NCBI GenBank assembly: GCA_963729915.1
Contig: CAVSQE010000019.1
Span: forward strand, 42,292-106,291
From: an uncultured Acidobacteriota bacterium
Lineage (GTDB): Bacteria > Acidobacteriota > Terriglobia > Terriglobales > Acidobacteriaceae
Direction of reading: 5' to 3'
Length of the DNA: 64,000 bases
Numbering within the stretch: position 1 is the stretch's first letter; each line of letters opens with the position of its first letter. The position numbers and the translations under genes are program-made. The notes under the pieces are model-generated. The model had not been told where the DNA came from. It did not search any database and saw only the letters and a program-made list of their open reading frames with translations. This document shows, one piece after another, positions 1-39,023 of this stretch.

Positions 1-1
1 A

Positions 2-3000
2 GAGCCGAACTCTCAGCAATACCAGACAGCAGACGAGTACCTCTCCGGCAACGTGCGCCAGAAACTGAAGGACGCCCAAGGCGCCACACTGCTCGACCCA
101 GCCTATGAACGCAACGTCAAGGCGCTCCAAGCCGTCCAACCCGAAATCGTTCCCTTCATCGACATCGATGTGCGTCTCGGACAAACCTGGGTGCCAACAG
201 AGGTGTACGTTCAATTCCTCAACCGGCACATGGCCGAGCAACGCCCGGCGTCCGGTGACCGCGCGCCGTCCATCACAAGAGACCTCAACGGGCGCTGGAG
301 CGTCGATCTGCCTTCCTGCTACAACGCATTCGAGCTGACACACAAGTGGTCGGGCGGAGGGATGTCCGGTCACAAGCTCCTCGAATACGGTCTCAACCTC
401 CAGGAACCGACCATCTATCAAAACAATGCGGATGGCAAGCCTGTCATCGATACGGTACGAACGATCGCTGCGCGGGCCAGATTGCGCGAAATCAAAGATG
501 CCTTTTCCGAATGGGTCAAAGACGACAAACAGGCCGACATTCATCCGCAGATCGAGCGCATCTACAACGAGACCTTCAACGCCACGCGTCTGCGTGTGTA
601 CGACGGTGGTCACCTCTCGTTCCCAGGGCTGAATCCCACCGTCGTTCCGCGCCCATATCAGATGAGGGGAGCCTGGCGCGTCATGGTCGAAGGCCGTGCC
701 CTTCTCGACCACTTCGTCGGTTCCGGGAAATCCCTCTCGGTAATTATCGCCGGTATGGAATCGCGACGAATCGGAATCTCGCGCAAGAACCTCTATGTAG
801 TCCCGAACAACATGATTCAGCAATGGCGGGAAGAGTTCAAGAAAGCCTATCCTTCCGCCAATGTTCTGGCCGTGACGGAACGGGATTTCGATTCCCCACT
901 GAGCAGGAAACGTCTCTTCAGTCGTGTCGCTACAAACGAATGGGACGCCGTCATCGTTCCCCATTCCCAGTTCGACATGCTCCCCATCTCGCCCGAACGC
1001 GAAGCGAAAACTGTCAACGCACAGATGCAAGAGATGAAAGACCTGCTGCGTGAGGGCGCTGAAACCAATCGCCCTAAGACGAGAGCTGAGAAGCGGACCA
1101 CGCGCCAGATCGAGAACAAGATTCAGAAGTACAAGGAGAAGCTGAAAGAGCTTTCCCAGGGCCGGAAGGACGACACCATCTACTTCGACGATTTGGGGAT
1201 CGATCGCCTTTTCGTAGACGAAGCCCATGCATACAAGGCTCTGGCAATCGTCACGAAGATGGGAAACATTGCGGGTATCAGCACCCGCGAGTCCCAGCGG
1301 GCGCAACGCATCCTCGCCAAGATCGAGTTCATGCAGGAAACGCATAACGGCGCCGGGGTAATCTTCACCACGGCCACACCGATCACAAACACACTCGGCG
1401 AACAGTTTGTGATGACTCGCTACCTGGCGCGCGACATCCTCACCAAATGCAACATCCACAATTTCGACGACTGGGCGGCAAACTTCGCCGAGCCCGTCAC
1501 GCGGATGGAATACGCCACAGATGGCGTCACCATCAAGCCGAAGACCGCTCTTGCAAACTACGTCAACGTCCCGGAACTCCAGTCCATTTGGTCCCAGTTT
1601 GCTGACGTAATGATGCAGGACGAAGCCGAGGAAGCCGGCTACATCACCCTACCCAAGGCCGTCCGCAAGGATCTTCTTGTCAAGGTGACTCCAGCCCAGG
1701 AACCCCTGCTCCAGAGCATCGCCGAGCGCGGCGAACTCCTGAGCCTTCCGATGAGCGATCCGGACCGGCCTGACCCAACCGAAGACAACTGGCTCAAGCT
1801 CGATTCCGACGCCTGCGCAATCTCACTCGACGCCCGTCTTTACGATCCCACCCGCCCGGACGATCCTGACAGCAAGGCCAATACCGCCGTGCGCAAGGCA
1901 CTCGATGTCTTGCACCGCACGGAAGCCGAACGCGGCACTGTCATTGTCTTTGCCGACCGTTACCAGCGCGGCGACTTCAACCTCTTCGAGGACATGAAGA
2001 GGAAACTCATCGCGGCCGGCGTATCCAGGGAACAGGTCGCAATCGTTCACGACTACAAGAAGGGCAAGGAATTCTTCGGACTTCAACAGGCTATGCGCGC
2101 GGGCCGCGTCCGTGTCCTGCTCGGCACCACAGAAAAGTGCGGAATCGGCGTCAACATTCAGACGCGCCTCAAGGCGCTGATTGACCTCGACCTCCCGCAA
2201 CGGCCCGACCAGTTGGAGCAGCGCCACGGTCGAATACGCCGTTCCGGTAATACATTCTCCGAAGTGGAGTTCTACCGGATGATTTCAGAACCAAGAGACG
2301 TGGCATCGCCAAAGGCGCACGATCTTCAACGTGCCCAGCTCCTGGAACGGAAGCAGACGTTCCTGTCTCAGTTCAAATCAGGCGGCCGGATGGGTCGAAA
2401 GATCGAAGATATTGCCGGCGAGACACGGTTGAGTCCTCAGATGTTTGCCCTGGCCAAGGCCCAGGCCACCGGCAACCCGCTGGCGCTGGAAAAGATCAAG
2501 CTGGAATACGAGATCAAGAACCTGACCCTACTCGCTCGCTCCAACCGGCTCGACCACTACAACAACCGCCAGCAACTGCTGAACGTCGAGTACCGGATCG
2601 CACATCTCAAAGACAGGTTGCCTCAACTTCAGGAAGCGAACCGTGTATTCAAATCACATGAGCACCGGGACGATGAGGGCAAACTGCTCAGTCTCCAGGT
2701 TCGCTTCAACGGCCTCGAATTCTTGCGGCTCAAGGACGCCAACGAATACCTGCGAACGGTCTCCCTCGACAGCACAACACAGCTCACCGTCAACGGCCTG
2801 GACATTTCCCTCGCGGTCAGCGATGCCCTCATCAAAGACGAACTTGGCGCCATCACGGACATAACAGCCGTTCGCTACAACCTGGCCGGGGAGTGGTTCG
2901 ATGTGCCGCGCCCGGAAGCCCACATGGGGATGCCCTCAGCCCAATCGCTGCTCACCTCAGTCTTGCGCCGCGGTGGAGACCTGCCGACGAAGATCCTCGA

Positions 3001-3373
3001 AACAGAATCATCCATTCTCGAAAACGAGTCCACACTGACCCGTCTGCACACAGCGTTGGATTATCAAAGCCCCTACGAGGCGAAGCTCAATGAGTACGAG
3101 CAGCGTCTGGCGGAAATCGACAAGGAGCTACTTGGCAAGACGGAAGAGGTCGAGGAGCTGGTCGATGCGGAGGCGGAGGAACTAGGGTCTGCAAAGACCG
3201 TTCCGGTCGAACGTGAAGCCACGGATAGCGAAGATCGCGTCACCGCGGAACCCATCGAAGACCGATCTGTAGCCGAGATTGCCGTGGATGATTTCCCAGG
3301 CGAAGCCCTCGAAATACCCACGATGCAGGCTCCCCGATTCAAAAGAAGGCAAACGGCCGATCGAGGACGGTAA
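2..3373 (+). CDS. C-terminal ~1120 aa of a giant SNF2/DEAH helicase of the fused DNA-methyltransferase/helicase class (DarB-like, typical of conjugative elements and phages); 5' end outside window
   Basis: The frame is open from nt 2 (EPNSQQYQTADEYLSGNVRQKL...), so the GTG at 53 is not the true start. Helicase motifs: VGSGKS (I), LFVDEAHAYK (II, DEAH), TTATPITN (III), QRHGRIRRSGN (VI). A long coiled-coil and acidic tail follows the core. Confidence 0.8.
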   Translation, partial: EPNSQQYQTADEYLSGNVRQKLKDAQGATLLDPAYERNVKALQAVQPEIVPFIDIDVRLGQTWVPTEVYVQFLNRHMAEQRPASGDRAPSITRDLNGRWSVDLPSCYNAFELTHKWSGGGMSGHKLLEYGLNLQEPTIYQNNADGKPVIDTVRTIAARARLREIKDAFSEWVKDDKQADIHPQIERIYNETFNATRLRVYDGGHLSFPGLNPTVVPRPYQMRGAWRVMVEGRALLDHFVGSGKSLSVIIAGMESRRIGISRKNLYVVPNNMIQQWREEFKKAYPSANVLAVTERDFDSPLSRKRLFSRVATNEWDAVIVPHSQFDMLPISPEREAKTVNAQMQEMKDLLREGAETNRPKTRAEKRTTRQIENKIQKYKEKLKELSQGRKDDTIYFDDLGIDRLFVDEAHAYKALAIVTKMGNIAGISTRESQRAQRILAKIEFMQETHNGAGVIFTTATPITNTLGEQFVMTRYLARDILTKCNIHNFDDWAANFAEPVTRMEYATDGVTIKPKTALANYVNVPELQSIWSQFADVMMQDEAEEAGYITLPKAVRKDLLVKVTPAQEPLLQSIAERGELLSLPMSDPDRPDPTEDNWLKLDSDACAISLDARLYDPTRPDDPDSKANTAVRKALDVLHRTEAERGTVIVFADRYQRGDFNLFEDMKRKLIAAGVSREQVAIVHDYKKGKEFFGLQQAMRAGRVRVLLGTTEKCGIGVNIQTRLKALIDLDLPQRPDQLEQRHGRIRRSGNTFSEVEFYRMISEPRDVASPKAHDLQRAQLLERKQTFLSQFKSGGRMGRKIEDIAGETRLSPQMFALAKAQATGNPLALEKIKLEYEIKNLTLLARSNRLDHYNNRQQLLNVEYRIAHLKDRLPQLQEANRVFKSHEHRDDEGKLLSLQVRFNGLEFLRLKDANEYLRTVSLDSTTQLTVNGLDISLAVSDALIKDELGAITDITAVRYNLAGEWFDVPRPEAHMGMPSAQSLLTSVLRRGGDLPTKILETESSILENESTLTRLHTALDYQSPYEAKLNEYEQRLAEIDKELLGKTEEVEELVDAEAEELGSAKTVPVEREATDSEDRVTAEPIEDRSVAEIAVDDFPGEALEIPTMQAPRFKRRQTADRGR

Positions 3374-3507: not shown

Positions 3508-4674
3508 TTACGCGAGGATTCGCCCAAAGCGTACTTTGAAATCATCGTCGCTGAGCAGAACGGCGGAGCGTATCTTCCAATAGGCCGCGAGAAGCGTCTT
3601 TTCGCCTTCGCTCAGTTTCTGCATCTCCTCGTATGCGCTGATCTGGAAGACTTGACCTCGACCAAACGCGCCGCCGAAAACCTCCCCCGGAAAGAACTGG
3701 ATCGCAAGTTCCGAACTAAGAGACACTCCAGCGTTCGCGAGTCCGCGGAGGAGATCTTCGGCAAGTGCCCGGCGTTGATCAATGTTACAGATATCGTCTA
3801 CTGCGATACGCAGCGCAGAGAAAGCCTCGGACGGAATAATCTCTCTCATCATATGGAAGGCACGTCGCAGTTCGTCTGCCAACTGAGCTCTGGTGCCACG
3901 GTCAGCGGGAGCGCCGGCACGCAGCGATTCTTCATACAGCAAGATTCCGGGGCTCGTATCTTCCCTGAAGTAGGTCCGCAAGTGGTTCGTGACACGAACG
4001 CCCAACGCGGCATCTCTAGCGAATTGTTTGTAGAACGCTTCTCGAAAAGCCGCGATGTCTATGGCTGCATTCAGAATTGCGATAATGTCGGACGCATGGA
4101 CTCTGGCTTCCTCGCGATCATGTTCGGCTTGTTCCGGCCCCCGCACGTTCCTGTATCGGTCGTCGAGGGCAAGAAGCTTCAGCAGAACAAGCGCATGGGC
4201 GCGCGTGACACGAAGATTGGCTCGCGCTGGCGTTCCGTCTGGCAGCATCCCACGCACTTCATGCAGACCTGATTCTCGCAGCGCGATGCTACCGCCGAGG
4301 CATTCTCGCGCGTGCAGTCCCTTTTCAATCGAAACGCGGAAGTCAGTCCCCTTCTTCAATTCGTCCGGCGCCATGAATTCGATCCGCATGACTTCCCTGG
4401 AACCGGGGATCGGCTTCTGGAATTGAAAATTGCGTGATTCGGGAACCACGGTATAGCTCAGCGCCGCCAGTTTTTCCGTGACGTTTGCGGGTCTCTCCCG
4501 CAGTGAAATTGCATCCAGAAGGAAATCGAAGTCCCTCGTCGCTCTGGCCTCGGCGAGCACGAACTTCAGTGCTTGTCCGCCAACCAGGACGAATTCGTCC
4601 GCGGCAGGACCAAGCGTCGTGAGCAACTCCAATAGATACGTTTTTTGTGGTTCGGGAATCATACTGCTTTCCAC
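3508..4674 (-). CDS. Nucleotidyltransferase-fold protein, AbiEii/DUF1814-like putative toxin (388 aa) with an extra C-terminal region
   Basis: Pol-beta NTase pattern VLVGGQALKFVLAEARATRDFDFLL followed by MRIEFM. The start overlaps the upstream ORF stop by 16 nt (4659-4674). Confidence 0.55.
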   Translation of the reverse strand: MESSMIPEPQKTYLLELLTTLGPAADEFVLVGGQALKFVLAEARATRDFDFLLDAISLRERPANVTEKLAALSYTVVPESRNFQFQKPIPGSREVMRIEFMAPDELKKGTDFRVSIEKGLHARECLGGSIALRESGLHEVRGMLPDGTPARANLRVTRAHALVLLKLLALDDRYRNVRGPEQAEHDREEARVHASDIIAILNAAIDIAAFREAFYKQFARDAALGVRVTNHLRTYFREDTSPGILLYEESLRAGAPADRGTRAQLADELRRAFHMMREIIPSEAFSALRIAVDDICNIDQRRALAEDLLRGLANAGVSLSSELAIQFFPGEVFGGAFGRGQVFQISAYEEMQKLSEGEKTLLAAYWKIRSAVLLSDDDFKVRFGRILA

Positions 4675-5804
4675 ATTGGCTCGATTGCATTGTCGAACAG
4701 GTAGTCCGCCTGTTTCTGGTCGCGCCCGCCGCGTGCCGCTAGATCGAGATACGTCTGGACATCAGATACGGTCGGGATGCGTTCGTATCGTTTGGCGTAC
4801 ATGAATACTCCAAGATCGTATGGCTCTAAGAAGCGGAGTGGTGGACCCTCGGCTTTGGAGCCAGCGAGATTTTTCAGCTTTTTGTTCTGCTTTGCGGATG
4901 GCAAGTATATATCCACTGTGTCGAGATCGATGAAGGGAGCGCGAACTGTGGCGGCAGCGGGTCCAGTGAAGGCAAATGCGCCCAGGGACAAGGATTCGAG
5001 TGCGTCACTGATTCTGGCCAGGTCTTTGCCGAATGAATTGGGGTAGGTGATGCTATTCCGCAACCGTGAACGATAGCGTTCCCGGTACTTCGTTGCCCAG
5101 GCGAGCAAAAGGCGCTTCGGCTCCGGCAGCACCACAGCTGTACCGCGTCGGCGGACCCAAAGCTGCTCTTCCAGCGTGCTGAGAGCTTTCGATATGGTGC
5201 CTAGGCTGACGATGAAACTCCTCTCAGAATCACGATCCGTCACTTCGGAGATGAGCGCATTGTCGCGGGATTCCCTTTCGAGTTCCTGTGCAATGTCGCT
5301 CAGAGTCCACGTGCGCGGGTTTTCGAGGAGGACCCTGAGGATTCGCGAAAAACGGCCGGAGAAAACATTCACCTCGCGGGGACCTTCCGCCGATTGAACC
5401 CAATTTTTGCTGCGCTGGCCTGTCCGTTGCAGAACGAACCTGCCAGGAACATTGATGGAAATGTTGCCGGCAAGGTCAAGGAAGTCAATCCCCGCGCCCA
5501 TGCAGTAGGTCTGTGCCTGTTGCGAGAGAGCTGGACAGATGATTGCGAAAGCGGCATCCTTTTCAATTGCCTTTAGACGGGCGATCCATGGGGCGATGGC
5601 TTCAAGCTGCCTGGGACTGATTGCCTGCTTGATTTCTGCATAGACGCGGACCTTGTTCGTTCCGGACTCCAGATCAAAGCGGACATCGAACGGACCGCTC
5701 TTTGCCACATTGGCGGCCCGTATTCCTGACATTTGCGCAAACGGAACCTGATCCATGATGGCCTGGACGACAGCGGCTTCAGTCATTTGAGCAGAGCGTT
5801 GCAT
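4659..5804 (-). CDS. wHTH protein with AbiEi-like C-terminal domain (putative antitoxin/regulator) and an N-terminal PD-(D/E)xK-like extension (381 aa)
   Basis: Central wHTH-like segment WTLSDIAQELE...ISKALSTLEEQLWVRRRG. C-terminal part ends in VSDVQTYLDLAARGG, as in AbiEi proteins. N-terminal FDVRFDLE...VYAEIKQ gives a D...ExK pattern. Operon partner of the NTase gene. Confidence 0.5.
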   Translation of the reverse strand: MQRSAQMTEAAVVQAIMDQVPFAQMSGIRAANVAKSGPFDVRFDLESGTNKVRVYAEIKQAISPRQLEAIAPWIARLKAIEKDAAFAIICPALSQQAQTYCMGAGIDFLDLAGNISINVPGRFVLQRTGQRSKNWVQSAEGPREVNVFSGRFSRILRVLLENPRTWTLSDIAQELERESRDNALISEVTDRDSERSFIVSLGTISKALSTLEEQLWVRRRGTAVVLPEPKRLLLAWATKYRERYRSRLRNSITYPNSFGKDLARISDALESLSLGAFAFTGPAAATVRAPFIDLDTVDIYLPSAKQNKKLKNLAGSKAEGPPLRFLEPYDLGVFMYAKRYERIPTVSDVQTYLDLAARGGRDQKQADYLFDNAIEPMWKAV

Positions 5805-6060
5805 GGACTCATTTTCCCAGATAGGAAAATGAATGTAAAGGAAAACTTTCCACTATGTAGATTTTCTTGAACTGGAAAGCACCATGCAGGATCGTGCTTC
5901 TATCCGCAGAATCGGTCCGCTCCATCGCGCATTGCCGACGGACACCTGCGGGAGCTGTCATGCCGTTCGTTGACGGAGAGTTCAAATAAATCAAACACAT
6001 ACAAAGCTAGAGCAACGGATTTTGTGGTATCATTGAGATGTAATCCAGGAGACCAGCCTG

Positions 6061-7242
6061 ATGCCTCGCAGACCAAAGCAGGAAAAGCACAAAGGTGTCT
6101 TTGAAAAGGCGAAAGGCTCGGGCATATGGTGGATTCGCTATACCAATGAACAGGGCAAGCGGGTCACGTCCAAAGTCGGAACCTTCTCGGCGGCCGTCCG
6201 GGTCTACGAGCAGCGCACCATGGCGATCCGGCTCGGCATTCTGCTTCCCACCTCCCCTCGGCACGGCGCCAAGTTTTCGGAGTTGGTAGCCGACGCGATC
6301 AAGTTCTCGGAAAAGCATCACCGGGCTTCCAAGGACTTCAAGCAGCGGGCGGAGTTGGCACTCGAAGAGTTCGGCGATCGCGTAGCTGAGTCCATCACCA
6401 CGGCGGAACTTCAGGCGTGGGTGGACGAGATGGCCGAGGAACGGGACTGGACCGGGGGAACCCAGAATCGGTTCAAGTCCACCCTCAGCACGGTTTTCCG
6501 GGAGGGGATGCGGGCCGGCAAGGTCACCGTGAACCCGGCCCGGCTGATCCGGCGCGCGAAAGAATCCCTGGGGCGGGTCCGGTTCCTCTCCTACGAGGAG
6601 GAGGCCAAGCTTCGGAAAGCCATCGCCGCCACCCTGCCCGGCCGCATCAAGGACGAGGGGGAAAGCGCCTTCGCCCAACTGGATGTTGCCCTCCACACCG
6701 GGATGCGCAAGTCCGAACAGTTCGCCGCCACCTGGGAGCAGGTTGACCTCGAACGGGGGTTCATCTACCTCTCCATGACCAAAAACGGCAGCGACCGTTT
6801 CGTCACCCTCAACAGTGCCGCCGCAGCGGTGCTCAGACGCCTCCAGGAGCATCACAAAGAGCTGGGGCTACCCTTGACCTCCACCCTGTTTCATTCCAAG
6901 CGCGACGGGCTGATTAAGAACCCGCGCAAGTGGTTCGCGACCGCCCTCGAACAGGCCAAGATCAAGGGCGTCACCTGGCACACCCTCCGGCACACCTTCG
7001 CTAGTCGTTTGGTGATGGCTGGGGTAGACTTAAAAACAGTGCAGGAACTGATGGGACACAAGACGATCGCTATGACCGCCCGGTATGCCCACCTCGCCCC
7101 GATTCACAAGTCGCAGGCGCTGGAAACCCTGGTGCGTCCGGGGTCGGTTTCGGTACAAAGTGGCTATTTTTTGGCTACCAACACCAAAACGGCCACGCGG
7201 AGCAGAAAACTGAATAGCCTTCAACTTATTGACTCTAAATAA
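6061..7242 (+). CDS. Tyrosine recombinase / phage-type integrase (393 aa)
   Basis: C-terminal catalytic region HTGMRKSE ... WHTLRHTFASRLVMAGVDLKTVQELMGHKTIAMTARYAHL (R..HxxR..Y signature). Sits adjacent to a tRNA gene. Confidence 0.9.
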   Translation: MPRRPKQEKHKGVFEKAKGSGIWWIRYTNEQGKRVTSKVGTFSAAVRVYEQRTMAIRLGILLPTSPRHGAKFSELVADAIKFSEKHHRASKDFKQRAELALEEFGDRVAESITTAELQAWVDEMAEERDWTGGTQNRFKSTLSTVFREGMRAGKVTVNPARLIRRAKESLGRVRFLSYEEEAKLRKAIAATLPGRIKDEGESAFAQLDVALHTGMRKSEQFAATWEQVDLERGFIYLSMTKNGSDRFVTLNSAAAAVLRRLQEHHKELGLPLTSTLFHSKRDGLIKNPRKWFATALEQAKIKGVTWHTLRHTFASRLVMAGVDLKTVQELMGHKTIAMTARYAHLAPIHKSQALETLVRPGSVSVQSGYFLATNTKTATRSRKLNSLQLIDSK

Positions 7243-7256
7243 GTTGCATCAGATGT

Positions 7257-7332
7257 GAGCTCGTAGCTCAGTTGGTAGAGCAACGCCCTTTTAAGGCGTG
7301 GGTCCTGGGTTCGATTCCCAGCGAGCTCACCA
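7257..7332 (+). tRNA. tRNA-Lys (anticodon UUU), CCA encoded
   Basis: 76 nt. Acceptor GAGCTCG/CGAGCTC, D-loop TAGCTCAGTTGGTAGAGCA, anticodon loop CTTTTAA, T-loop GGTTCGATTCC, 3' ACCA. Confidence 0.95.
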
Positions 7333-10150: not shown

Positions 10151-11227
10151 GTGAAACCCGCAAACGATGAACCAGCGCAGGCGCCGGAGCGCGAGTCTGC
10201 GGCGGCGACGGCACTGCGGGCACTGCGCGTGGTCGCCATTGGCGGCGGCACGGGACTCTCCACGCTGTTGCGCGGATTGCGCCGGCACGTTCCCGCCCCC
10301 GGAAAGAGCGCCACCGCGGCGAACGCTATCGCTGACCTTGCCGCCGTGGTGACCGTGACCGACGACGGCGGCTCCTCGGGACGGCTGCGGCAGGACTTCA
10401 ACATGCTTCCACCCGGCGACCTGCGCAACTGCATGGTTGCCCTCAGCGAAGAAGAGGACCTGCTGACGCAACTCTTCTCGCACCGCTTTCGCGCCGGCAA
10501 CGGTTTAAAGGGGCACAGCTTCGGAAATCTGTTTGTGGCTGCGCTCACGGAGATCACGGGCGATTTTGCCCAGGCAGTGCAATTGGCGTCAAAGATCCTG
10601 GCCACGCGGGGACACATTTATCCGGCGACGACGGCCAACACAACGCTGGTAGCCAACATGGACGATGGCTCGATTGTGCGCGGCGAAACCAATATCACTG
10701 CAAGCAAGCGGCGCATCGTGGAACTGACGCTCGATCCGCCCAATCCCACGCCCCTGCCGGAGACGCTGGAGGCAATTGAGCGCGCGGAGCTGATTACGGT
10801 GGGCCCCGGCTCACTGTATACGTCGCTGATTACGAACCTGCTTGTGGACGGCATCCCCGAGACGCTGGGCGAGGCGCACGGCGTGCGCGTGTTTATTTGC
10901 AATCTGATGACGCAGGCCAATGAGAGCCTGGGGTTGAGCGCCGCTGATCACATCCAGCGCATTTACGACCACACGCGCAGACCGATCTTCGATTTTGCGG
11001 TCGTCAACACGGGGGAATTTTCGCCAGACACTCTGGCCCGTTACGCTGCCCAGGGCGCGACGCCGATCGTGCCCGACGTCAAGCGCATTGAAGCGCTGGG
11101 CGTACGCTGCATTGCCGGGGATTTTGCCAGTGAAGAGATTCTAGTGCGCCACACGGCCAGCCGCCTGGCGGACGTGGTGCTGGAACTGGCGCAGACCCGT
11201 GCCGGATCATCACAAAATCCTCAATAA
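10151..11227 (+). CDS. YvcK/CofD-family gluconeogenesis factor (UPF0052)
   Basis: VVAIGGGTGLSTLLRGLR and VTVTDDGGSSGRLR motifs. GTG at 10151 avoids overlap with the upstream gene; the ORF track start at 10067 is likely too long. Confidence 0.85.
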   Translation: MKPANDEPAQAPERESAAATALRALRVVAIGGGTGLSTLLRGLRRHVPAPGKSATAANAIADLAAVVTVTDDGGSSGRLRQDFNMLPPGDLRNCMVALSEEEDLLTQLFSHRFRAGNGLKGHSFGNLFVAALTEITGDFAQAVQLASKILATRGHIYPATTANTTLVANMDDGSIVRGETNITASKRRIVELTLDPPNPTPLPETLEAIERAELITVGPGSLYTSLITNLLVDGIPETLGEAHGVRVFICNLMTQANESLGLSAADHIQRIYDHTRRPIFDFAVVNTGEFSPDTLARYAAQGATPIVPDVKRIEALGVRCIAGDFASEEILVRHTASRLADVVLELAQTRAGSSQNPQ

Positions 11228-11305
11228 AAAAATCTTTTCAGGCGTAGACCGCCCGGGGTAGAGTCGAAGTGCGCGCTTGCCCTCCCTGCGCGACGAGGAG
11301 GATTT

Positions 11306-11845
11306 ATGAACAAGACCCGAGTTTGGACGATTGTCGGTTGTTGCGGCCTTGCGCTCGCCGTGTTGGCGTGGGGTCAATCGAAACAGAAGCCGGGCCTGTG
11401 GGAGACCACAACCCAGATGAGTATGGCCGGCATGCCGCAGATGCCGCAATTGCCGCCGGGCACACAGTTGCCACCGGGAGTGCAGATGCCTGCCTCTCCA
11501 TTTGCTCCGCACACCAGTGAGGTTTGCGTCACCCAGGCCATGATCGACAAATACGGAAGCCCGTATTCCAATCCGCAGCGCGGCGATTGCCAGGTAACGG
11601 ACATCGTGATGAAGCCGGACGGCATGACGGCGAAGATCGTTTGTACCGGCCAGATGAATGCGACGGGCACCGTGCAGACGACGTTTGTCAACTCCAATAC
11701 GACCAAGACAAACGTGCACATAACGGGAACCATGCAGATGGGATCGAACAGCCGGCCCATGGACATGACCATGCAGTCGACCTCTACCTACAAAGGCCCG
11801 GACTGCGGCAGCGTGCAGCCGTTGCCCATGCCCCCAAGCAAATAA
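11306..11845 (+). CDS. DUF3617-family secreted protein
   Basis: Signal peptide, then PGLWETTTQM... and conserved Cys pattern. RBS gaggagg lies upstream of the ATG. Confidence 0.6.
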   Translation: MNKTRVWTIVGCCGLALAVLAWGQSKQKPGLWETTTQMSMAGMPQMPQLPPGTQLPPGVQMPASPFAPHTSEVCVTQAMIDKYGSPYSNPQRGDCQVTDIVMKPDGMTAKIVCTGQMNATGTVQTTFVNSNTTKTNVHITGTMQMGSNSRPMDMTMQSTSTYKGPDCGSVQPLPMPPSK

Positions 11846-11873
11846 GGGAACTCGCGGGCGCTGCGTGACGGGT

Positions 11874-13037
11874 TTATGCCTCGACGGTGCGCTTGAGCTG
11901 GCCGCAGGCGGCGAAGATGTCGCGGCCGCGCGGCTGGCGAATATAGGCGGGGATTCCCTCTTCCATGAGGAGCCCCTGGAACTGCTCCGCAGTCTCGGGT
12001 TTTGGAGTTGCGTAGGGGATATCCGGCCCGGGATTCCAGGCGATCAGGTTCACCTTTGCGGGAAGGCCGGAGTGGCGCACGAGGCGCGCGACCTCGCGGG
12101 CGTGTTCCGGCTGATCGGTGACGCCACCCAGCAGCACGTATTCGAAGGTGATGCGCTCGCGGGGACGCAGCGGGACCTGACGCACCGCGTCGATCACTGC
12201 GGCGATCGGCCACTTGTGGTTGATGGGCATGATTTCAGTGCGGACCGCATCGTTGGGCGCGTTGAGGCTGATGGCGAGCTTGGGGCGCACGTCGAGCGGT
12301 TCTTTTGCGAATTTTTCGATCCCGGGAACGATGCCGGAGGTGGAGACGGTCATACGCCGAGGGCTGAGGCCGACCTCGTGGACCAGCAAGCGCACCGCAA
12401 CCATGAAGTTGTCATAGTTGAGGAACGGCTCGCCCATGCCCATGAAGACCAGATTCACGCGATCGCGGCCGACGCGAACGGCCTGACGATCGAGGACCGT
12501 GACGACCTGGCCTGCGATTTCGCCCGCGGTGAGATTGCGCTGCAGGCCGAGTTTCGCGGTAAGGCAGAACTGGCAGTTGACGGCGCAACCGATCTGCGAG
12601 GAGATGCAGATGGTAGCGCGGGACCAATCCTTTTCGCCGGGGCCAATTTCGTCGCCGACCTCGCCATCGTCACCCGCCGGCATCCACACGGTTTCCGCCG
12701 TTTCACCCTTTGGACGAGAGCCTTCGAATTCGACCAGGTAGCGCTCGGTGCCGTCGGAAGACTGGAAGGCGCGAGCGATGGCCGGACGGCCGATTTGCCA
12801 GCCTTCGGCGGTTAGTTTTGTGCGCAAAGGCGCGGGCAAAGTAGTGATTTCATGAATTTCTCTAAGCCACTGACGATACATGGCTTCAGCAATCTGATTG
12901 CCCCGGAACGCGGGCTCGCCAGCTGCGGCCAGAAGCCCGGAGAGAGATTCCGCATCTAATCCAAACAGGGGCTCCCTGAGGCCACCGGACGCACGGTTCA
13001 CGTCTAAAGAAACGAGTTGGGCTGATTTTTCGCGCAT
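11874..13037 (-). CDS. rlmN: 23S rRNA/tRNA (adenine-C2)-methyltransferase RlmN, radical SAM
   Basis: CAVNCQFC radical-SAM cluster motif, GMGEPFLNYDN, C-terminal ACGQL. Confidence 0.9.
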   Translation of the reverse strand: MREKSAQLVSLDVNRASGGLREPLFGLDAESLSGLLAAAGEPAFRGNQIAEAMYRQWLREIHEITTLPAPLRTKLTAEGWQIGRPAIARAFQSSDGTERYLVEFEGSRPKGETAETVWMPAGDDGEVGDEIGPGEKDWSRATICISSQIGCAVNCQFCLTAKLGLQRNLTAGEIAGQVVTVLDRQAVRVGRDRVNLVFMGMGEPFLNYDNFMVAVRLLVHEVGLSPRRMTVSTSGIVPGIEKFAKEPLDVRPKLAISLNAPNDAVRTEIMPINHKWPIAAVIDAVRQVPLRPRERITFEYVLLGGVTDQPEHAREVARLVRHSGLPAKVNLIAWNPGPDIPYATPKPETAEQFQGLLMEEGIPAYIRQPRGRDIFAACGQLKRTVEA

Positions 13038-13163
13038 GACAGGGCTCAGCTTTCAGTATCTTAGCTTTTCCTGAGGGGCTCTGGATTCGAACCATCCGCC
13101 CTCCCCGTTGTCGAGCGTGGCTGCCGGCTTATTGGAATTGGCCTACAATCGAGTTTCGAACTG

Positions 13164-14456
13164 GTGCCGATGAATACTGAGAGAAATCTTCGCCGTACCG
13201 TATTGCCGAACGGCCTGATCGTCCTGACCGAGCGCATGGACCACCTGCACTCCGTGGCCATGGGCATCTGGATCAAGTCTGGCTCGCGGTGCGAAACCCC
13301 GGAGATCAACGGCATCTCGCACTTTGTGGAGCACATGCTCTTCAAAGGCACGCGTTCGCGCTCGGCGCAACGCATTGCCCGCGAGATGGATTCGATTGGC
13401 GGCAACCTGGACGCTTTTACCAGCAAGGAAACCATCTGCTTCAACGTGAAGTCGCTGGCGGGCCATGTGCCCATTGCGCTGGACGTGCTGAGCGATATGG
13501 TGCTGAATCCTACCTTTGCCCTGCCCGATATTGAGCGCGAGCGCGGGGTGATTCTGGAAGAGATCAAGATCGACGAGGACAATCCCGACGTGCTGGTGCA
13601 CGAGCTGTTTACGCAGAGCTTCTGGAAGGGGCATCCGTTGGGCAAGCCGATCCTTGGCACCACGGACACTGTGGCGCGCCTGGGCCAGCAGCAGCTCTTC
13701 GCGTACCACGGCGACCGTTTTCACGGGGGGAACATGGTGTTCTCCGCGGCCGGGAACCTGGACCACGATCAATTTACCGCGGCCGTAGCGGAAAAGTTCT
13801 CGGCACTGGCCATCGGCAATCCATTGCAAGAGCTTTCAGCGCCTGAGCCAAGTGCCCGCATTACTCTGCGCAACAAGAAAGCGCTGGAACAGGTGCAGAT
13901 CTGCCTGGGCGTGCCGGCGCCGCCAATTACTGACGAAAACCGCTACGCGACGACGATCCTGAACACAGTGCTGGGCGGCGGCATGAGTTCACGGCTCTTC
14001 CAGACCATCCGCGAGGAGCGTGGGCTGGCCTACTCGATTTATTCCGACCTGAGTCCTTATCGCGACACCGGAAATCTTTGCGTGTATGCGGGCACATCGG
14101 CCAACAAGGCGCTGGAAGTGGTGGACCTGATTCTGGCGGAGTTCCGCAGCCTGAAGCAGGAGCCGGTCAGCGCCGAAGAGCTGACGCGCGCCAAGGACCA
14201 GGTAAAAGGCAACATTCTCATGGGAATGGAAAGCTCCAACTCGCGCATGGCCAACCTGGCGCGGCAGGAGATGTACTTCCACAAGTTCTACTCGGCGGAC
14301 GAGATTATTAAGCACGTGGATGAGGTGGAAGCGGAGCACGTGCAGGCGATGGCGCAGCGGCTCTTCATCCCCGAGAGCATTGCAGTAACGCTGCTGGGGC
14401 GGCTGGACGGGGTGAAGCTGAACCGGACCGACTGGCGTGTTGAAGAAAGCCTCTAA
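13164..14456 (+). CDS. M16-family (pitrilysin/insulinase-like) zinc peptidase
   Basis: HFVEHMLFKGT (HxxEH inverted zinc motif) and M16 N- and C-domain organisation. Confidence 0.85.
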   Translation: MPMNTERNLRRTVLPNGLIVLTERMDHLHSVAMGIWIKSGSRCETPEINGISHFVEHMLFKGTRSRSAQRIAREMDSIGGNLDAFTSKETICFNVKSLAGHVPIALDVLSDMVLNPTFALPDIERERGVILEEIKIDEDNPDVLVHELFTQSFWKGHPLGKPILGTTDTVARLGQQQLFAYHGDRFHGGNMVFSAAGNLDHDQFTAAVAEKFSALAIGNPLQELSAPEPSARITLRNKKALEQVQICLGVPAPPITDENRYATTILNTVLGGGMSSRLFQTIREERGLAYSIYSDLSPYRDTGNLCVYAGTSANKALEVVDLILAEFRSLKQEPVSAEELTRAKDQVKGNILMGMESSNSRMANLARQEMYFHKFYSADEIIKHVDEVEAEHVQAMAQRLFIPESIAVTLLGRLDGVKLNRTDWRVEESL

Positions 14457-14557
14457 CTGCCTTTCGAGCGATTCATTTCCCTTTCCCGTCTGTACGTTGT
14501 AGCATTTTCTCGGACGGGCCTGGAGTTGCGGGCCTGCTCGAAGGGACTGGAATCGCA

Positions 14558-37544: not shown

Positions 37545-38063
37545 ATGGCTTCGGCGCGCAAATCCGTCATTGTGCGTAAGTTCTCGCGCGATTGGTGCGC
37601 GGGCTACGCGGGCGCGGAATTTGGGCAGCAGAAAGCTGAGCTGGAGTTTCTGGACCTGACCGGCAAGGTGGTCCGGATAGGTTGGGAGCAGGTGAAGTGG
37701 GTCTGCTATGTGCGGGACTTCCCTGCCGGATCGGCAGACCAGGCCAACCCTGAGCGCCTGGTACGCAAGCGATTTTCGCTGCGGCCGCGCACTGCTGGGC
37801 TCTGGTTGCGCCTGATCCTAGGCGATGGTGACGAGTTGGAGGGATTGGCAGCCAACGACCGTTCCCTGGTGGAAGGCGCCGGGCTCCTTCTGACTCCGCC
37901 GGATACGCGCTCGAATACCCAGCGGATCTTCGTGCCCAGGCAGGCCATACAGGCTCTCGAAGTGGTGAGTTTGATCGGGGCCGCGGGGCGGAAACGGGCT
38001 GAGACGCCGAGGCCGGGCGAAGAGCAGCCTGGGCTGTTCGGCGCCGAGGGAGAGACGGGCTAA
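37545..38063 (+). CDS. Hypothetical protein (172 aa)
   Basis: ORF with ATG at 37545 (the longer ORF starts at 37365). No recognised motif. Confidence 0.45.
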   Translation: MASARKSVIVRKFSRDWCAGYAGAEFGQQKAELEFLDLTGKVVRIGWEQVKWVCYVRDFPAGSADQANPERLVRKRFSLRPRTAGLWLRLILGDGDELEGLAANDRSLVEGAGLLLTPPDTRSNTQRIFVPRQAIQALEVVSLIGAAGRKRAETPRPGEEQPGLFGAEGETG

Positions 38064-38090
38064 GAGATGCCCTTTTCCTTCCTCACCCTC

Positions 38091-38120
38091 GGCACGACTA
38101 GAGCCGTGCCCTTTCAAAAC
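38091..38120 (+). repeat. 30-nt hairpin repeat element, copy 2
   Basis: GGCACGACTAGAGCCGTGCCCTTTCAAAAC. Overlaps the stop codon of the 38114-38878 gene. Confidence 0.8.
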
Positions 38121-38878
38121 CGCGGCCCGATTCTGTATGTCTTTATATGTACTTTCATCCGATATGGAATCTTGTCGCTGGTTAGTCTAACTAAATTGCC
38201 ATTTGCAGTCTGGCTAAAAATAAAATATTGACTGCTCGCCCACGTAGTCTGCTTTCCTTGAGCCGAACCAACAACGGCAAAATCTTCAACGCCATCTCCG
38301 TTGAAATCCCCCCGGGCAAGAATAGTGAGGACGTAGTAGTTATTTTCATCTTCCGCCAGTAGCCGATCATTTGTAACTGAAGTGATCTTCAACTTTGAGT
38401 TGTACTGCTGCCAACTAGTCCCGTTTTGTTCAGCCTTCTCAGCGGCATTTTCTACTTCTTTTGCTCCCACGATAAGGATTGGGGGAAGTTGATCTAAGGA
38501 GTTGGCTGTCCAATGGTACGAAATACCGGAGGTCGGTGAGCTAGCAGTCTGAAGGTCGCGAAGAACGTAGCATCGAAACACAAACGAGCCTGTTAGCTTC
38601 ACCACCAAGTTGTCCTTAGGGTGGAACCCGGCGCTTACAGAATCTAAAAAGTCCTGGCAAGTCTTGATTGTACGATCTGCGGTGCCATTTGTGTAGGTAA
38701 CTGCTGTCACCATATCAGGCAAGGGGGTTGACATAGCACTAGGGATGTCAGTTTGACTGCTTAGCTTAAGATCCGGTGACCATGTAACTTGGGCTACACC
38801 AGTTTGCACAGACATTACGCCGAACCACACAAGGCCGACTACGGTCGTCGCGGTTATGTGAATCAAACGGTTTTTCAT
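38114..38878 (-). CDS. Secreted hypothetical protein with one FG-GAP/VCBS-like motif, low-GC gene
   Basis: Signal-anchor MKNRLIHITATTVVGLVWFGVMSVQTGVAQ; motif ARGDFNGDGVEDFAVVGS. G+C is clearly below the neighbours. Confidence 0.55.
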   Translation of the reverse strand: MKNRLIHITATTVVGLVWFGVMSVQTGVAQVTWSPDLKLSSQTDIPSAMSTPLPDMVTAVTYTNGTADRTIKTCQDFLDSVSAGFHPKDNLVVKLTGSFVFRCYVLRDLQTASSPTSGISYHWTANSLDQLPPILIVGAKEVENAAEKAEQNGTSWQQYNSKLKITSVTNDRLLAEDENNYYVLTILARGDFNGDGVEDFAVVGSAQGKQTTWASSQYFIFSQTANGNLVRLTSDKIPYRMKVHIKTYRIGPRF

Positions 38879-39023
38879 GATCTTTGCTGTCCCCCTCTAA
38901 CCAGTTCTTATGTAACGGACCCGTGATTATCTCTCGCTAGTTGCCCACCGCTTGCAAGGTATACGTGTTATACGCCCCTTGCAGTAGATTACCGTCTGCC
39001 TTTGCTCCATCCTGCAAAGATTC

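Follow-up and report, generated by a model that had tools for sequence, protein, structure and literature searches.

The window analyzed here comprised 64,000 nucleotides of contig CAVSQE010000019.1 from an uncultured bacterium of the Acidobacteriaceae (Acidobacteriota). Two overlapping genes on its minus strand encode an AbiEi_2-type regulator followed by a nucleotidyltransferase (NTase). With a probability of roughly 0.7, this pair is a bicistronic, autorepressed toxin-antitoxin (TA) or abortive infection module of the AbiE family, belonging to the branch that combines COG4861 (AbiEi_2) with a DUF1814 (AbiEii/COG4849-like) protein. We favor this reading because the Pfam matches to AbiEii and AbiEi_2 were both above their cut-offs, the NTase carried invariant residues, the gene order was conserved and the pairing of the two COGs had been published. 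The conserved operator/promoter and the mobile or defense-type neighborhoods of the pair also argue for it. Family membership, the three-domain anatomy of the regulator, the gene order with its 4-nt coupling and the conserved promoter repeats were computed in this study. New here are the assignment of the N-terminal domain (N-domain) of the regulator to a nuclease fold and the conserved predicted operator/promoter, which consists of GGAAARTTTTCCTTTACA and TTTCC-N6-GGAAA. Coordinates are given in Table 1.

The gene pair and its coupling

The two minus-strand open reading frames (ORFs) of 381 and 388 aa were present as described in an original prediction made from the sequence alone, and the strings quoted there (VLVGGQAL…RDFDFLL, MRIEFM, FDVRFDLE…VYAEIKQ and VSDVQTYLDLAARGG) were all found in the translations. 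Each protein had more than 600 homologues at E ≤ 0.001 (626 for the regulator), and nearly all among the best 120 listed for each protein were full-length, so both ORFs are real genes and not chance ORFs. The listed homologues came chiefly from Acidobacteriota genomes and from soil and peat metagenomes. Among the best 120 of the 626 regulator homologues, lengths were mostly 378-383 aa. Proteins identical to the window regulator were encoded on five contigs.

The full-length NTase homologues listed almost all had 384 aa and started at the methionine of MIPEPQ, which corresponds to ATG 4662. A GGAAAG element was located 6-7 nt 5' of this ATG, while GTG 4674 was without such an element. On both grounds GTG 4674 was dropped as the start codon of the NTase in favor of ATG 4662, and the overlap of the two genes therefore consists of the 4 nt of ATGA. 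The 16-nt overlap (4659-4674) described earlier applies only to the longest ORF, but the translational coupling that it was taken to imply was borne out by the shorter one. A 4-nt overlap was likewise called in all four acidobacterial lineages read (loci L001, L007, L009 and L013). The order of regulator and then NTase, the two genes overlapping by 4 nt or separated by a short gap, was found in five independent lineages (25-100% identity) and on a plasmid annotated in RefSeq.

The nucleotidyltransferase

The Pfam model AbiEii (PF08843, DUF1814) matched the NTase at 34.3 bits, compared with a gathering score of 22.5, which confirmed that the downstream protein is an NTase of the AbiEii/DUF1814 type. 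The match spanned residues 21-282 of the 388-aa ORF and profile positions 8-229 of 238. AbiEii models of PADLOC also matched, at 1.2e-7. Homologues of the NTase are named "AbiEii/AbiGii toxin family" by both NCBI and JGI, and many of them carry PF12281 (NTP_transf_8) as well.

Conservation was analyzed in an alignment of 32 sequences with identities down to 49%, in which G28, G29, R40, T42, D44, D46, E95, K162, R169, H181, D182, H189 and D192 were invariant. Motifs I and II of the polymerase β type are represented by G28-G29 and D44-F-D46, with E95 as the third carboxylate. Motif III of DUF1814 was identified as K162-L-L-A-L-D-D-R169-Y and aligned with LKGVALGERY of a distant partner NTase. 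In the region of motif IV (+DxxD), hhalign placed K-D-A-Y-D of the distant NTase over V188-H189-A-S-D192, with the first Asp replaced. The invariant H181-D182-R183-x-E185 was located in a 15-residue insertion just before this region. The signature had been called minimal, with 13 residues between VLVGGQAL and RDFDFLL; the gap is 10 residues, and the DUF1814 core is complete (hG[GS]…DhD, third carboxylate and motif III).

In the loop R40-A-T42-R43-D44, T42 is positioned two residues before the first catalytic Asp, and an Arg precedes. By sequence, this loop matches the R-x-[ST]-[RK]-D loop of MenT3 and MenT1, in which the phospho-acceptors are S78 (R76/S78/K79/D80) and T39 (T39/R40/D41), respectively (PMC11375011). 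MenT3 S78, MenT1 T39 and AbiEii T65 are auto-phosphorylated upon antitoxin binding (PMC11375011; bioRxiv 2026.01.19.700257).

The AlphaFold2 (AF2) model of the NTase (predicted local distance difference test, pLDDT, 86.5; predicted template modeling score 0.86) had an NTase core and, after it, an all-helical body. Its top fold match in the PDB was 4ok0, a putative nucleotidyltransferase of Helicobacter pylori, and this match was weak (E 0.029, TM 0.28-0.45). Both proteins have an NTase core followed by a helical domain, while 4ok0 has 225 aa and is without the additional C-terminal helices. We take 4ok0 to be JHP933, a DUF1814 protein.

The C-terminal extension of the NTase, previously put at ~150 residues, has a length of ~100 aa, with the Pfam match ending at residue 282 of 388. 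It was all-helical with a pLDDT above 90 in the AF2 model, and it matched no known family or fold. The extension was confined to an acidobacterial subfamily of 384-392 aa. The partner NTase of L007 (292 aa) was 63% identical over residues 1-278 and then ended, and its regulator was 52% identical; the partner NTase of L013 (285 aa) was likewise without the extension. The extension is a separable module specific to one subclade, in which it might add a further specificity or docking function.

The regulator

Three domains and one disordered linker (residues 132-143) were distinguished in the AF2 model of the regulator (pLDDT 83.4). The C-terminal domain was matched by Pfam AbiEi_2 (PF09952), which is equivalent to COG4861 (PMC7251935). 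The match covered residues 228-374 and profile positions 4-142 of 143, and its score was marginal (22.2 bits, gathering score 21). AbiEi_2 was matched by 25 of 30 sampled family members, with a best E value of 2.2e-15. This domain was also the most conserved part of the regulator (P328, D330, G332, Q350, Y352-L-D-L and R361). The Pfam models AbiEi_1, AbiEi_3 and AbiEi_4 did not match the regulator at E ≤ 1.

The central winged helix-turn-helix (wHTH) gave weak, sub-threshold Pfam matches to HTH_IclR, HTH_11, GntR and Crp (residues 153-232), and its counterparts in relatives matched MarR, IclR, Crp and HTH_24 at 1e-6 to 1e-7. In the AF2 model, helices 153-161, 168-181 and 201-213 were followed by a β-hairpin (218-225). 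A wHTH-like center and an AbiEi-like C-terminus had been predicted for the upstream protein, and both were supported by the HTH matches, the AF2 model and the PF09952 score above its cut-off. Judged from its sequence, the regulator is not a canonical COG5340 AbiEi, the corresponding models being unmatched and the domain order being different.

The regulator model was also aligned by Foldseek with MenT1, a toxin of the NTase type (8an5_B; 151 columns, E 0.017), and with TM1012 (2ewr, E 0.09). The AbiEi_2 pattern F-T-G-x-A-A-A … V-D-I-[YF] resembles a degenerate hG[GS]…DxD. That the AbiEi_2 domain is an inactivated NTase-like fold is unproven, and the idea was set aside: hhalign against the profile of the partner NTase was negative (probability <1%) and the usual DxD carboxylates were not conserved. 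The PADLOC PDC-M05A matches of 6 of the 30 relatives were also discarded as support for a degenerate NTase, as they cover the wHTH only (residues ~131-200, profile positions 7-63). PDC-M05 is a HEPN/MNT candidate system (PMC12988326).

A nuclease-fold domain in the regulator

The first ~130 aa of the regulator had been described as PD-(D/E)xK-like, and this was upheld at the level of the fold by the AF2 model, by Foldseek and by the conservation of D40, E57 and K59. Secondary structure elements in the model were helix 9-17, strands 28-35, 41-47 and 50-58, helix 64-80, strand 84-90, helix 95-104 and strand 107-110. The core had the order α-β-β-β-α-β, in which the second strand begins around D40 and the third ends around E57-x-K59, an arrangement of the PD-(D/E)xK type. 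In the Foldseek search against the PDB, EndoMS/NucS structures were on top (5gkj with E 1.5e-4 and probability 1.0, 5gke and 2vld; range to 3e-3), followed by Cap4, FokI, BspD6I, Can2, BamHI and VC1899. Many of the matches among viral models were restriction endonucleases, nucleases or VRR-NUC proteins.

No significant sequence-profile match to a curated nuclease family was obtained. EndoMS/NucS was again the best match when the N-domain profile was compared with PDB sequences, at sub-significant values (E 0.076 and 0.091), and the alignment covered ExK and the stretch "GvlvAPyiS..a..lCee.Gigy". Among Pfam families, NucS_C alone had matches in more than a single member (3 of 22, best E 0.13, sub-threshold). 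No Pfam or NCBIfam model spans the N-domain, and no mention of a nuclease-fold domain in COG4861/AbiEi_2 proteins was found in the searchable literature.

The residues D40, E57 and K59 were present in the window regulator and in all close relatives. Their wider conservation was counted in 87 representatives of at least 320 aa, which were taken from the profile search without other selection and aligned to the family hidden Markov model (HMM). The D40 position was occupied by D in 74 of the 87 and by E in 5, the E57 position by E in 70 and by D in 4, and the K59 position by K in 66 and by R in 5. The full DEK triad was intact in 55. D110 and G113 were present in all 87 sequences and N114 in 85, while S94, C101 and P64 were kept in 84-89%. 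The loss of a triad residue in about one third of the lineages, together with the strongest constraint on the non-catalytic D-L-x-G-N turn, fits a role of the N-domain in DNA binding, sensing or scaffolding, with catalysis perhaps retained in many members including the window regulator. A QxxxY motif of the RecB/NucS type (Q96-Y100) was present in close relatives and not family-wide, and was not used as evidence.

Promoter and putative operators

A promoter of the sigma-70 type was predicted 5' of the regulator gene, with a -35 element TTTACA (5834-5839), a 17-nt spacer and a -10 element GAAAAT (5811-5816) preceded by TG. The two inverted repeats at this promoter share TTTCC/GGAAA half-sites. 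Each pattern occurred once in the window, where 0.13 and 0.03 occurrences were expected by chance. All 13 loci compared had the 18-mer GGAAARTTTTCCTTTACA exactly once, 47-50 nt before the start of the regulator gene. These included loci with regulators only 52-53% identical, and those carry a third TTTCC-Nx-GGAAA upstream. Negative autoregulation at promoter inverted repeats has so far been shown experimentally only for COG5340 AbiEi (PMC3985639); by analogy, the conserved promoter repeats would be the expected signature of autorepression by the wHTH.

The 256-nt intergenic region between the integrase and regulator genes contained a further imperfect inverted repeat, AAGCACCAT/ATCGTGCTT, at 5877-5899, and a 14-nt inverted pair, 105 nt apart, at 5860-5992. 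These extra repeats might relate to the control of the integrase or of excision.

Distribution of the family

In a search of 1.84 billion representative proteins with the family profile, 2397 representative clusters passed E ≤ 0.001, of which 1088 also passed E ≤ 1e-10. Among the full-length matches listed, the distant ones mostly had 340-370 aa and aligned in two stretches, which covered the N-domain and the wHTH/C-domain. The pattern D…ExK…PR…APYxS…C…GIGYxDLxGN was kept in an alignment of 30 members with identities down to 22%. The three-domain layout was distributed in Acidobacteriota, Actinomycetota and Pseudomonadota. JGI or NCBI give regulator homologues the name AbiEi family antitoxin, and members from Thermoleophilia and Actinomycetota carry the NCBI name "type IV toxin-antitoxin system AbiEi family antitoxin". 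An actinobacterial member with only 25% identity was followed by a gene for a 283-aa protein, for which hhalign found a link to the family of the window NTase (E 4.8e-11, probability 97%).

A tblastn search of plasmids matched 46 records, 36 of which cover at least 80% of the query, with hosts such as Agrobacterium, Ralstonia, Cupriavidus, Sphingomonas and Streptomyces. Coverage was 92-98% in the twelve plasmid copies listed, and those with 94-98% coverage are annotated in RefSeq as "type IV toxin-antitoxin system AbiEi family antitoxin". In the two plasmid records in which the match reached the next gene, that gene is annotated as "AbiEii/AbiGii toxin". On a plasmid of A. vitis, the genes of a 358-aa "AbiEi family antitoxin" and of a 289-aa "AbiEii/AbiGii toxin" overlap. 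No phage-borne copy was detected by tblastn in 50,697 phage records.

The pairing of COG4861 with COG4849 was published in 2014 as a second AbiE-like class (Dy et al., 2014, PMC3985639), with a STRING association score of 99% (PMC3985639). Papers of 2024-2026 call this class uncharacterised (PMC11375011; bioRxiv 2026.01.19.700257). The pair had been proposed as an atypical, non-canonical system with a new architecture. Its identification as an AbiE-like pair stood, with AbiEii and AbiEi_2 above their cut-offs, but its novelty as a type did not: the combination of N-domain, wHTH and AbiEi_2 is the norm in the AbiEi_2/COG4861 family, with more than 1000 clusters, and proteins of this layout already carry the name AbiEi family antitoxin in RefSeq. 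Both proteins were thus largely placed in existing families with the same architecture, the remainder being that the N-domain is without a Pfam model and that the branch is experimentally uncharacterised. The locus is an ordinary member of a widespread, database-annotated AbiE branch.

Genomic context

The pair was confirmed to lie between a helicase gene and an integrase gene. The helicase ORF corresponds to the last 1106 aa of a fusion protein of 1723 aa, whose full gene is at 12432-17603 of L009 in the parent contig. The fusion comprises an N6_Mtase/Eco57I-like methyltransferase, WH_1, DUF8437, an SNF2 helicase and Helicase_C, and its PADLOC matches were to a helicase of the DrmD/BrxH type. 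The label "DarB-like", given to the helicase earlier, was fair, a methyltransferase-helicase fusion being seen in the full gene. Small ORFs, a LacI-type gene and an insertion sequence (IS) were located beyond it in the parent contig. The fusion gene is convergent with the NTase gene and was not a conserved neighbor of the pair at other loci.

The integrase gene stops 15 nt short of the 5' end of tRNA-Lys(UUU). As the integrase is on the 5' side of the tRNA gene, the low-GC island would be on this side too, which is the unusual one. The GC content was 0.54-0.59 to the left of tRNA-Lys and ~0.60-0.62 further right. A low-GC stretch with an integrase gene and a tRNA gene next to it agrees with the predicted location of the pair on a mobile element, an island of roughly 11 kb with boundaries inferred from GC content only. 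No direct repeat of at least 12 nt of the tRNA-Lys region, as expected for an att site, was found within 12 kb. Elsewhere in the window, the GC content dropped to 0.50 in the 1-kb bin 38001-39000, compared with ~0.60 around it, which may indicate a small foreign insertion or an RNA gene region.

Each lineage had other neighbors beside the pair. The two-gene module is therefore the conserved unit, and a functional link to the adjacent methyltransferase-helicase was rejected on the same ground. In L001, a lineage with 75% identity, the island contained genes for TIR, PNP_UDP_1, DUF2971 and Mu-transposase/IstB proteins and looks like a defense island. A 1396-aa protein was encoded there (10341-14531; also in L002, L003 and L006), 41 nt downstream of the pair and on the same strand. 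It resembles a STAND-type NTPase and had only weak nSTAND3/AAA_5 matches; to the helicase fusion it was unrelated (BLASTP E 0.19). The neighbors in L007 were IS elements and a ThiF/DUF6791 (E1-like) and Multi_ubiq cluster (10494-12411), followed by Peptidase_M78/HTH genes; this cluster is of the ubiquitin-like conjugation defense type. TonB-dependent receptors were encoded beside the pair in L013, glycosyltransferases in L014 and an ABC-three-component system in A. vitis.

Table 1. Location of the gene pair, its domains, its promoter and adjacent features in the window
Feature	Position	Strand	Details
Methyltransferase (N6/Eco57I) and SNF2 helicase fusion, 3' two-thirds	1..3373 (ORF 53-3373)	+	Pfam and PADLOC helicase matches
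NTase, longest ORF	3508-4674	-	GTG start, 388 aa
NTase C-terminal helical extension and stop	3508..3816	-	residues ~283-384, beyond Pfam match
NTase core, DUF1814/AbiEii, presumed toxin	3817..4662	-	residues 1-282 of 384-aa protein
ATGA stop/start overlap, translational coupling	4659..4662	-	reads …gca gtA TGA ttc…
abiEi_2-type regulator gene, presumed antitoxin	4659..5804	-	ORF, ATG start, 381 aa and stop
C-terminal AbiEi_2 domain, presumed toxin-neutralizing	4662..5123	-	residues 228-381
Central wHTH	5124..5375	-	residues ~144-227
N-terminal NucS/EndoMS-like PD-(D/E)xK domain	5415..5804	-	residues 1-130; D40, E57-x-K59, invariant D110-x-x-G113-N114
Promoter with two inverted-repeat putative operators	5809..5851	-	promoter scan and inverted repeats
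Inverted repeat TCATTTTCC-N6-GGAAAATGA, spans -10	5809-5832	-	
Inverted repeat GGAAAgtTTTCC, abuts -35	5840-5851	-	
Tyrosine integrase, divergent from pair	6061..7242	+	Pfam Phage_integrase 1.1e-30
tRNA-Lys(UUU), probable island boundary	7257..7332	+	ARAGORN

Discussion

The closest known systems are the COG4861–COG4849/DUF1814 pairs (PMC3985639), which share both families with the window pair, have the regulator first and the NTase second in overlapping genes, and encode the same three-domain regulator of 340-385 aa. The window's acidobacterial subfamily differs from them in an NTase that is ~100 aa longer at the C-terminus. AbiEi–AbiEii of Streptococcus agalactiae and MenA3–MenT3 of Mycobacterium tuberculosis (COG5340–COG2253, now type VII TA) have in common with it a DUF1814 NTase with hG[GS], DxD and K…R, an S/T two residues before the first Asp, an upstream wHTH antitoxin and promoter inverted repeats. 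In contrast to AbiEi and MenA3, the window regulator does not belong to COG5340, is about twice as long, has its wHTH in the center instead of at the N-terminus, carries the extra PD-(D/E)xK domain and ends in a domain of a different family (AbiEi_2).

For the N-domain (residues ~1-125), the C-terminal nuclease domain of NucS/EndoMS (NucS_C; 2vld, 5gke) was the best structural match. The ExK strand and the segment G-h-h-h-A-P-x-h-[ST]…helix…G-h-x-[FY] align at the profile level. However, the window regulator is without the N-terminal DNA-binding domain of NucS, its D-to-E spacing is 3 residues longer, and its similarity to NucS is below Pfam thresholds. The invariant D-L-x-G-N is specific to the family, in which about one third of the relatives have lost the triad.

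The mechanism of an AbiE module of this kind can be outlined from MenT1, MenT3, MenT4 and S. agalactiae AbiEii. By analogy with these systems, the 384-aa NTase would extend tRNA 3' ends with nucleoside triphosphates (NTPs), and aminoacylation and translation would be blocked. The regulator would neutralize the NTase through its AbiEi_2 domain, docking on the active-site face and probably triggering auto-phosphorylation of T42 in the loop R40-A-T42-R-D44-F-D46, following the logic of type VII systems. The winged helix may repress the operon at the TTTCC/GGAAA repeats overlapping -35 and -10. Loss or inactivation of the regulator, for example during phage infection or once the island is lost, would free the toxin. 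The NucS-like N-domain, as a family-wide third module, is most likely a DNA-binding, DNA-sensing or DNA-cleaving accessory and not the neutralizing part.

Several points weigh against the assignment of the pair to an AbiE-type TA or abortive infection module. The AbiEi_2 score of the regulator exceeds its cut-off only just (22.2 against 21), and none of the AbiEi models of PADLOC matched the regulator. The NTase sequence has motif IV (+DxxD) in a variant form only, its fold matches are weak (best E 0.029), and neither profile nor single-sequence searches linked it to the crystal structures of MenT or AbiEii. Phosphorylation control is not general to DUF1814 toxins, as MenT4 shows (bioRxiv 2026.01.19.700257). 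The canonical model does not account for what the N-domain and the NTase extension do.

In a different reading, the NTase is not a toxin and acts on another substrate (a small molecule, a protein or a signaling nucleotide) with the upstream protein only as its transcription factor. The ~100-aa helical extension, absent from characterized toxins and close relatives, and the lack of a direct sequence link to MenT or AbiEii structures would suit this reading. We consider it quite improbable, however, given the complete DUF1814 core with the putative phospho-acceptor T42, the tight coupling with an AbiEi_2 partner in every lineage examined and the mobile or defense-type context. The pair is directly beside the island integrase, its relatives are frequent on large plasmids and megaplasmids, and S. 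agalactiae AbiE stabilizes plasmids (PMC3985639). The window pair may be mainly an addiction or stabilization cassette for the integrated island, acting by post-segregational killing without a role in phage defense. We regard this as unlikely, though far from negligible: relatives occur among defense-type genes (TIR, STAND-like NTPase, ABC-three-component system), and the founding AbiE systems abort phage infection (PMC3985639). Addiction and defense are in any case not mutually exclusive roles.

The AbiE-type reading could also be extended. The regulator may itself be an enzyme, with its N-domain either a working nuclease that acts as a second effector against invading DNA or a DNA-structure sensor that releases the NTase on recognizing phage DNA or replication intermediates. 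In that case the pair would form a sensor-coupled defense system and not a plain TA system; this is not exclusive of the AbiE-type reading. Such an activity is suggested by the predicted fold with D40, E57 and K59 in canonical positions, by the retention of each triad residue in 76-85% of the 87 representatives and of all three in 55, by true nucleases as the closest structures (EndoMS/NucS, Cap4, FokI and Can2), and by the retention of the domain across phyla. However, about one third of the representatives have lost at least one triad residue and yet keep the domain and D110-x-x-G113-N114, a pattern that suits a structural or binding function more than obligatory catalysis. A QxxxY-like motif is seen in close relatives but not family-wide, and the similarity to NucS_C is sub-threshold. 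We therefore hold an enzymatic or sensing regulator to be possible and only tentatively propose it. More speculative, and in our view rather doubtful, is its generalization, that all COG4861/AbiEi_2 "antitoxins" are three-part sensor-regulators in which the NucS-like domain couples the recognition or cleavage of invading DNA to the release of a tRNA-targeting NTase.

The locus is one of hundreds of near-identical acidobacterial copies, and the pair has been recognized bioinformatically since 2014. The COG4861 branch has thousands of members across phyla, which are automatically annotated as "AbiEi antitoxin" and are experimentally unstudied. The conserved 18-bp operator/promoter GGAAARTTTTCCTTTACA could be used to study regulation experimentally and to locate further loci. 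The nuclease-fold domain of the regulator is branch-wide and absent from the characterized AbiEi and MenA antitoxins. If the N-domain is functional, it would supply a concrete hypothesis on the sensing of infection by an AbiE-type system. If the sensor-regulator reading is true, the branch would be mechanistically distinct from the characterized COG5340 AbiE/MenAT systems.

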